From contig OY764159.1 in NCBI GenBank assembly GCA_963668175.1, positions 3,648,001 through 3,712,000 of the forward strand: DNA of 64,000 bases, in the 5' to 3' direction. Shown piece by piece: positions 44,252 through 44,659 of the stretch. The stretch's first letter is position 1. Every line of letters starts with the position of its first letter. The notes below the pieces were generated by a model that worked only from the letters and a program-made list of their open reading frames with translations, searched no databases and was not told the DNA's origin. Source of the stretch: Syntrophales bacterium (lineage in GTDB: Bacteria > Desulfobacterota > Syntrophia > Syntrophales > PHBD01). The position numbers were made by a program, and so were the translations under genes.

Positions 44252-44280
44252 TTGTTAAAGGAAGGGACCTTCTTTACATT
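44252..44280 (+). promoter_or_regulatory. Candidate sigma70 promoter of the tandem peptide genes
   Basis: TTGTTA-N17-TACATT, followed by an A-rich leader. Confidence 0.4.
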
Positions 44281-44317
44281 ATAGACGAAAAGAAAAAGAA
44301 AAAAAGATGCGAGGCGC

Positions 44318-44431
44318 ATGAAGGGAACGAAAAAGACACAAAAGAAAACGAAAGACGAGAAGCGCCGCCCCTGTAAAAAAGGTGGGATATGGATTGATCC
44401 CATGAGCTTCCCGAACTTGGATGGTTTATAA
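44318..44431 (+). CDS. Small Lys-rich peptide 1 (37 aa), not in ORF track
   Basis: MKGTKKTQKKTKDEKRRPCKKGGIWIDPMSFPNLDGL; GAGG only 3 nt upstream; shares W-x-D-P-x3-P...GL with peptide 2. Confidence 0.55.
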   Translation: MKGTKKTQKKTKDEKRRPCKKGGIWIDPMSFPNLDGL

Positions 44432-44461
44432 GCGTAGTATGGCAGAAAAGGAGAAAAGAGC

Positions 44462-44572
44462 ATGAAGAAAACGACTCCCAAGAAGAGAGAGAAGAGCATC
44501 GAAAAGAAACAGATTAACAAAGGATGGAACGATCCGACCTGCACTCCGATGGACATCACCAAGGGGTTGTAA
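44462..44572 (+). CDS. Small Lys-rich peptide 2 (36 aa), not in ORF track
   Basis: MKKTTPKKREKSIEKKQINKGWNDPTCTPMDITKGL; AAGGAG RBS 8 nt upstream; followed by a terminator. Confidence 0.65.
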   Translation: MKKTTPKKREKSIEKKQINKGWNDPTCTPMDITKGL

Positions 44573-44601
44573 CAGGACGGCCTAATGTATTCCCAGGGGC
44601 T

Positions 44602-44659
44602 GGAGAGAGGCCGCCATATATAATTGTCGTCGCAATTGTGTGGCCTCTCTCCCTTTTTT
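44602..44659 (+). terminator. Intrinsic terminator after the peptide pair
   Basis: GGAGAGAGGCC (44602-12) pairs with GGCCTCTCTCC (44642-52), inner TAATTG/CAATTG stem, then T6. Confidence 0.7.

Follow-up and report, generated by a model that had tools for sequence, protein, structure and literature searches.

Several small-protein partners of two-component systems are known in bacteria, among them MgrB, SafA, PmrD and Sda. All are very small, are encoded next to a two-component system or under its control, and exert their effect by binding a protein, not by catalysis. Annotation usually overlooks bacterial microproteins of fewer than 50 amino acids (aa), and for few of them is the regulatory context defined. 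This report concerns two adjacent microprotein genes in a 64,000-nt stretch of the genome of a Syntrophales bacterium (assembly GCA_963668175.1, contig OY764159.1, positions 3,648,001 to 3,712,000 of the forward strand), which is referred to as the window. The two open reading frames (ORFs) are, with strong support, real genes of one family, and sequence comparisons likewise strongly support an undescribed microprotein family that is restricted to the order Syntrophales. Like the four proteins named above, its members are very small and have genes that are located next to a two-component system or seem to answer to one, and binding to a protein is proposed for them as well. They differ in showing no sequence similarity to these proteins and in being soluble and polycationic, not membrane peptides. 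Moreover, they occur in many copies, in cassettes of three genes termed X, A and B, which apparently constitute the entire regulon. Small proteins associated with two-component systems have precedents, but no described counterpart was found for the three-gene, multi-copy cassettes, for their fixed two-operator promoter or for the fusion of one member to a zinc finger.

The usual unit is a stand-alone X-A-B cassette of roughly 0.5 kb, in which a promoter is followed by X, A, B and a terminator. The cassette in the window lacks X and is made up of the following elements:

44166..44185, + strand: distal operator, an imperfect palindrome copy (CATCGGAC-N3-GTCCGATG) about 152 nt before the first start codon
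44235..44254, + strand: proximal operator (TTTCAGAC-N6-CGATTG), more degenerate, exactly 69 bp downstream from the distal operator and adjoining the promoter
44280..44285, + strand: -10-like hexamer TATAGA, which aligns with TATAAT and TAGAAT of paralogous cassettes and gives a presumed start site
44318..44431, + strand: A-type microprotein gene, 37 aa, net charge about +8, core KKGGIWIDPMSFP
44448..44453, + strand: Shine-Dalgarno sequence AAGGAG, read directly, 8 nt upstream of the B-gene ATG
44462..44572, + strand: B-type microprotein gene, 36 aa, core NKGWNDPTCTP
44602..44659, + strand: intrinsic terminator, G+C-rich stem of 11 bp that encloses an inner hairpin, then T6

Both peptides carry the motif W-x-D-P-x3-P, and both ORFs lie on the + strand with the sequences and lengths given by an earlier interpretation that was made from the letters alone (the sequence-only reading). 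The ribosome-binding site that it had assigned to the second peptide was found in place, whereas the A gene is preceded by a weak GAGG only, 3 nt before the ATG. The 11-bp-stem terminator is real as well: its arms (44602-44612 and 44642-44652) pair around the enclosed inner hairpin, and the folding free energy of -43.7 kcal/mol (z -5.8) was equalled or bettered in 0 of 200 shuffles. The promoter proposed at the same time is supported by alignment with the paralogous copies but not by a simple consensus scan, which listed neither this promoter nor the terminator at the locus. The promoter was missed because its hexamers fall below the 9-of-12 rule of the scan, and the terminator because its loop exceeds the limit of 3-8 nt. 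In the paralogue alignment the window promoter stands directly before A, where the other copies have the promoter before X. Searches of the cassette region and three paralogous loci with the Rfam 15 covariance models returned sub-threshold chance matches only.

The further copies anticipated by the sequence-only reading do exist. The genome from which the window was taken (the source genome, a single 4.57-Mb contig) holds eight W-x-D-P (WxDP) genes and four X genes at six loci. Beyond the window these comprise tandem A/B pairs (L002 and L003), a single B-type gene (L008) and a single further member (L009). X precedes the WxDP genes at L002, L003 and L008, and the fourth X stands alone (C1:4468458-4468559). 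Gene orders at the 26 named loci, which were drawn from a species-representative collection, were XAB (7), AB (7), XA (6), A (2), XBAB (2), XABB (1) and B (1), and in-frame two-unit forms were also found (P0001, P0002 and P0113).

The members could be sorted by their motifs: X (30-53 aa) carries EFNPQ, in its fuller form E[RK][IV]EFNPQK..LG; the A-type consensus is K-[RVI]-G-G-[IL]-W-[VI]-D-P-[MT]-[CS]-[FY]-P; and that of the B type is [KR]-G-W-[VI]-D-P-[TM]-[CA]-T-P. In an alignment of 29 sequences, W, D and both P do not vary. All 33 A-type sequences have GG immediately before the conserved core; the B type has KG. The C-terminal motif is conserved, while the N-terminal half varies in sequence and length. 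Two traits that had been read from the window pair as shared did not hold across the family, namely the terminal GL, which is replaced by PMDL or PMEL in paralogues, and the single Cys, in whose place Ser or Ala is also found (C20/S13 in A; C22/A14/S3 in B). The peptides are 22-55 aa in size, with a median net charge of +5 in A (n=33) and in B (n=41) alike, and neither a signal peptide nor a hydrophobic segment was found in them. An AlphaFold2 model places a beta-hairpin around the GG turn, with a predicted local distance difference test score (pLDDT) of 85 for residues 21-30. A 36-aa ORF directly after a response regulator at another locus (L055, 4491-4601, - strand) joins the X motif (TEFNPK..ILG) and W-N-D-P in one peptide, which hints that X and WxDP peptides may work together.

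Codon patterns support selection at the level of the protein. In the sense frame, the 528 A pairs gave a pooled pairwise ratio of nonsynonymous to synonymous differences (pN/pS) of 0.51, the 820 B pairs 0.48 and the 253 X pairs 0.59, with synonymous sites close to saturation. The ratio rises to 0.90-1.21 in four of the other frames and to 0.63-0.67 in the antisense frame with shared wobble positions. At the invariant G, G, D, P and P residues every synonymous codon is in use. A Shine-Dalgarno-like sequence precedes the ATG in 37 of the 38 motif-bearing ORFs from all fetched loci. The sequence-only reading had suspected selection on the peptide from a motif shared between dissimilar stretches of DNA, and these results bear it out.

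A hidden Markov model (HMM) of the source-genome peptides matched 14 of 41 relatives, including all eight other genomes of the same family and five of 32 from other families of the order. Intact homologues were thus recovered in 13 other genomes, almost all with an ATG and a Shine-Dalgarno sequence, as the sequence-only reading would predict, and this takes the pair well beyond coincidence. X was present in 11 of the 41, all of them within the 14 peptide-positive genomes. A broader HMM matched 3 of 301 genomes sampled across the phylum, that is, the source genome and two of the same order, and all 26 named loci come from metagenome-assembled genomes (MAGs) of Syntrophales, Syntrophaceae or Syntrophus, or from MAGs labelled 'delta proteobacterium'. 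Contig ends are 50-500 bp away from many cassettes in one of the relatives (G026), a pattern suggestive of repeated, nearly identical copies.

A word-indexed protein search returned 112 homologues at E<=0.01, all unnamed or 'hypothetical' and none with a Pfam domain, while an exhaustive HMMER search of 1.84 billion representatives gave 49 clusters at 50% identity (E<=0.001). All 155 database matches of X are unnamed. The peptides had no match in Pfam or NCBIfam (seven peptides lacked an NCBIfam match at E<=0.1), and the ESM Atlas returned nothing relevant to them. The abstracts searched, covering the motif, Syntrophus small proteins and CbpA/CbpB, held no relevant description, and within that range of sources no described family, model or paper was found to cover X, A or B. 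The claim of an undescribed small-peptide family with its own transcription unit has therefore stood, with its own promoter and terminator beside the unnamed homologues.

The cassettes share a promoter design with two operators, each a copy of an 8-3-8 palindrome, which lie at about -152 and -83 relative to the start codon of the leading gene, no matter which gene that is. Both operators were present in 29 of 53 distinct cassette upstream regions, where they are spaced by 69 bp (16 regions), 68 bp (7), 67 bp (1) or 115-116 bp (5). Independently of any threshold, the best-scoring operator pair lies 67-69 bp apart in 38 of the 53 regions (row count). In the window, the distal operator reached a position weight matrix (PWM) score of 27.3, the second-best site genome-wide, and the proximal operator reached 28.7, the best genome-wide. 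The five top distal sites of the source genome are the five cassette loci, with scores of 27.8-23.9, and the next, unrelated site scored 16.7; two of these five were outside the training set, yet they rank fourth and fifth genome-wide. Both elements together occurred in 0 of 2000 random 300-nt segments of the same genome. Sequence evidence strongly supports the view that the dual-operator architecture is confined to these loci in the 4.57-Mb genome and, with equal strength, that the cassette promoter is probably of the activator type.

A genome-wide search for the paired architecture gave six matches, five at cassettes and the weakest before a Lys-rich 41-aa ORF outside the window (C1:2721443-2721568), whose weak dual-operator promoter has the 69-bp spacing. 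In the surrounding region (G000:C1:2721443-2721871) a hairpin follows this ORF, and its C-terminal motif differs (…DFTLPDW..); it may represent a fourth microprotein type of the same regulon.

A candidate regulator emerged from gene neighbourhoods. Genes for a PAS-HisKA_3 histidine kinase and a NarL/LuxR-type response regulator adjoin a cassette in two other lineages. The regulator shows 76-82% identity to its orthologue in the source genome (G000:C1:4468902-4469543), where the next-best regulator reaches 33-37%, and the kinase is 69-72% identical to its orthologue. Four arrangements were found: (i) in the source genome (G000), the kinase/regulator pair is convergent with the stand-alone X, about 340 bp apart; (ii) in G002, X-B is followed by the kinase and then the regulator; (iii) in all seven genomes of genus g2, the order is kinase, regulator, A-B; (iv) at L055 and L062, cassettes flank the pair on both sides, with the 36-aa X/W-x-D-P hybrid on one of them. 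Overall, a cassette member has the orthologous kinase and regulator as neighbours in all nine genomes of the family to which the window belongs, and also at L055, L062 and L048. The kinase has four PAS domains and no membrane segment.

Control of the cassettes by the NarL/LuxR-type regulator of this adjacent four-PAS kinase pair is well supported, and it is what we infer from these arrangements. By gene adjacency and the shared dual operator, the peptides would belong to the two-component-linked small proteins, which are a functional class, not a homologous family. Of the earlier suggestion of regulatory or nucleic-acid-binding peptides, the regulatory half is thus retained, since it fits the two-component link better than a peptide-maturation role does. 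A general enrichment of two-component genes near cassettes was also considered and proved unconvincing on its own. The source genome has 123 receiver domains, with an estimated chance background of roughly 17% per +-3.5-kb interval, and only the specific orthologous pair was counted. An ABC 'exporter' by the kinase in genus g2 was also set aside: the 753-aa ORF is over-extended, and the real product is an ATPase of about 270 aa with no membrane segment, whose source-genome orthologue lies elsewhere.

The best candidate for a binding partner is a small eight-Cys zinc-finger domain, here termed ZnR; two diverged sequences, 159 and 162 aa long, have an A peptide fused to it in frame. Both operators, with a spacing of 69 bp, are also present at the fusion gene, and in G020 the fusion is both the only peptide match and the only ZnR match of the genome. 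Free ZnR homologues (68-85 aa) are present in the source genome. ZnR was found in 25 of the 41 relatives, comprising 14/14 peptide-positive and 11/27 peptide-negative genomes. In G026, ZnR, ZnR, kinase and regulator form an operon, with two ZnR genes in tandem directly upstream of the orthologous pair (L081 1495-1922 and L103, the latter G026:C38).

The AlphaFold2 model of ZnR is confident (pLDDT 90), and sequence and fold searches with ZnR gave nothing significant (best domain match, B-box, E 0.022; best fold match, E 0.069). ZnR is similar to cross-brace two-zinc modules (B-box, FYVE and PHD) in its eight Cys and C-x2-C pattern, with weak sequence matches to B-box and weak fold matches to Rim2 and FYVE-like fingers. 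It differs from them in that none of these matches is significant and in being a free-standing bacterial protein with a conserved C-terminal VNP. A resemblance of the peptide core to a ZnR hairpin (VDP..F) was seen in a misalignment and was dropped, with a profile-profile probability of 0.3%.

Taken together, the peptides are best explained as cytoplasmic effector microproteins under this two-component system, an explanation that, taken whole, stands at about even chances. The kinase would sense an intracellular cue, its regulator would bind both operators, and all cassettes would be induced together. The products would stay in the cytoplasm, as the lack of a signal peptide or hydrophobic segment suggests. 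In the weakest step of the scheme, the conserved beta-hairpin and Pro-rich motif ([KR]xGG-[IL]W[VI]-DP-xx-[FYT]P) would dock onto a protein partner, while the variable polycationic N-terminal tail may bind an acidic surface or nucleic acid. ZnR, a small two-zinc B-box/FYVE-like protein that is naturally fused to A in one lineage, is the leading candidate for that partner. The biochemical role of the peptides in this scheme is something we infer.

A more novel formulation would be a signalling module that has no described counterpart: a cytoplasmic multi-PAS two-component system would have multi-copy cassettes of the co-evolving X, A and B as its entire regulon, read out through the fixed two-operator promoter, and the products would dock onto ZnR-like two-zinc proteins as a Syntrophales-specific output layer. 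This formulation is tentative and on balance doubtful. If the regulon does consist of microprotein genes only, this would be an unusual mode of action for a two-component system, and it could show by what means slow-growing syntrophs match their physiology to a cue from inside the cell. The hosts are syntrophic anaerobes that are hard to study genetically, but the system lends itself to direct tests in vitro through the operator pair and the fusion protein. The material offered for this comprises three co-evolving microprotein families with a regulon that can be defined precisely, together with candidates for the sensor, the regulator and the binding partner.

Several observations weigh against the favoured explanation. 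Among the operators, 24 of the 53 upstream regions fall below the thresholds, which were set after the data had been viewed; the weight matrices were built from sites at the same loci; and the L003 cassette has the proximal operator only. In the codon analysis, alignments were made from sense-frame translations, the sequences were selected by motif, and the pairs are not independent. Regulator homologues (E<=1e-50) were found in 28 of the 41 relatives, and because these include 14 of the 27 peptide-negative ones, the regulator is not exclusive to the cassettes. Furthermore, in the five peptide-positive genomes outside the family of the window, the regulator lies on another contig than every peptide match. 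The ZnR link consists of one fusion lineage and one operon, profile-profile comparison shows no relationship between peptide and ZnR, and the related genomes are not independent, so that the co-occurrence figures exaggerate the association. Finally, the peptide model is of only moderate confidence (mean pLDDT 69).

Of the other explanations, the one that survives best holds that the peptides, as small polycationic proteins, attach to nucleic acid or to the ribosome in the manner of stress or hibernation factors, for instance, and that the motif contacts RNA or a ribosomal protein and not a partner of its own. The median net charge of +5 in A and B proteins of 22-55 aa and the absence of hydrophobic segments are in keeping with it, and the co-induction of many copies would suggest that a high dose is needed. 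However, no similarity to any ribosomal or nucleoid protein family was found, conservation is highest in a part that is hydrophobic and Pro-rich, not basic, and it is the basic part that is free to vary in sequence and length. This explanation is judged unlikely.

The sequence-only reading had offered, as one option, a leader/core layout like that of ribosomally synthesized and post-translationally modified peptides (RiPPs), and had stated that no modifying enzyme is adjacent. The latter holds only in part, since a radical-SAM/SPASM enzyme of the CbpA/CbpB type is encoded 4 kb upstream of the pair on the same strand (unit 38584-40384), but this enzyme has its own precursor and riboswitch:

38584-38769, + strand: cobalamin riboswitch
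38853-38966, + strand: CbpA (TIGR04164, 55.6 bits)
38963-40384, + strand: CbpB, radical-SAM/SPASM enzyme (TIGR04163, 695.8 bits)

The peptides resemble CbpA in being short and in their Lys-rich N-terminus, which reads MKMKKTTEKKE in CbpA and MKKTTPKKREK in peptide B. They differ from it in giving no match to the CbpA model TIGR04164 and in having no riboswitch before their genes, none being found at 43900-45300. CbpB exceeds the cut-off in 1 of the 41 relatives, as against 14 of 41 for the peptides, and because of this it cannot be the partner of the family; with its own precursor CbpA, it was rejected as their maturase. From the same count, CbpA/CbpB looks like a recent or rare acquisition in the source genome.

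A RiPP pathway could still operate if the peptides were matured by a remotely encoded enzyme, with the basic N-terminal half as leader and W-x-D-P-x-C/S-x-P as core; the leader would be cleaved perhaps after GG or KG, and the core cross-linked or cyclised. The precursors of prochlorosins, for instance, are scattered far from their enzyme. Prochlorosins and the streptococcal radical-SAM peptides likewise comprise many short dispersed paralogues, some with a GG junction, and the short, multi-copy, tandem genes, the two-unit in-frame forms, the GG directly before the core in every A-type sequence and the presence of several radical-SAM/SPASM enzymes in the source genome all fit such a pathway. 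However, no radical-SAM, YcaO, lanthionine-synthetase or C39-peptidase family was found at E<=1e-5 among the 135 ORFs within +-3.5 kb of the 26 loci, whose neighbour contexts are otherwise unrelated to each other, and no NCBIfam or Pfam precursor model matches the peptides.

The peptides also differ from those two groups, and from most RiPP families, in that the supposed leader is variable and the supposed core conserved, which is the reverse of the usual pattern. Their Cys is dispensable, being Ser or Ala in about a third of members, and fusion to a folded zinc-finger protein would be odd for a precursor. The leader/core layout is therefore unsupported, and maturation by a distant enzyme is judged quite unlikely.

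Export is less probable again. The peptides would then be cationic pheromones, bacteriocins or interspecies signals that are sensed back by the adjacent two-component system, an idea suggested by that adjacency, by the pairing of the peptides as in two-peptide bacteriocins and by the GG motif of the A type. Against it, the peptides have no signal peptide, no linked exporter was found (the ABC gene of genus g2 encodes an ATPase only), and the kinase is cytoplasmic. Nor do they behave as double-glycine-leader bacteriocins, given that no Peptidase_C39 match was found at the 26 loci and that the B type has KG, not GG. Exported signals are accordingly regarded as improbable.

Finally, it is very unlikely, to the point of being hardly credible, that the region is non-coding or that its real gene is the 199-aa antisense ORF (44197-44796, - strand): a long antisense frame is indeed open here and at two paralogous loci, but the antisense strand is stop-poor because the sense strand is purine-rich, antisense frames have a pN/pS of 0.63-1.16 against 0.48-0.59 in the sense frame, the ORF has no Pfam match, Rfam gives nothing above threshold at the region, and the promoter, Shine-Dalgarno sequences and terminator all lie on the + strand. 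Such long antisense ORFs are a by-product of the purine-rich sense strand, and they can mislead gene callers.

The remaining genes near the cassette belong to other systems or could not be linked to it. A 60-aa Cys-rich ORF just past the terminator (44711-44893) has one paralogue in the source genome (C1:110654-110812, 40% identity) and no match in 20 relatives, and was rejected as a family member. Between CbpB and the cassette lie a hybrid sensor kinase with a dCache-HAMP-PAS-HisKA-HATPase-receiver architecture (40439-43177, - strand), for which no link to the peptides was found, and a 184-aa ORF (43497-44051) with neither a family match nor a peptide link. The ordinary neighbours further out are an ECF (extracytoplasmic function) sigma factor with a zf-HC2 anti-sigma factor (35939-37767) and the alpha and beta subunits of an electron-transfer flavoprotein (47335-49214).

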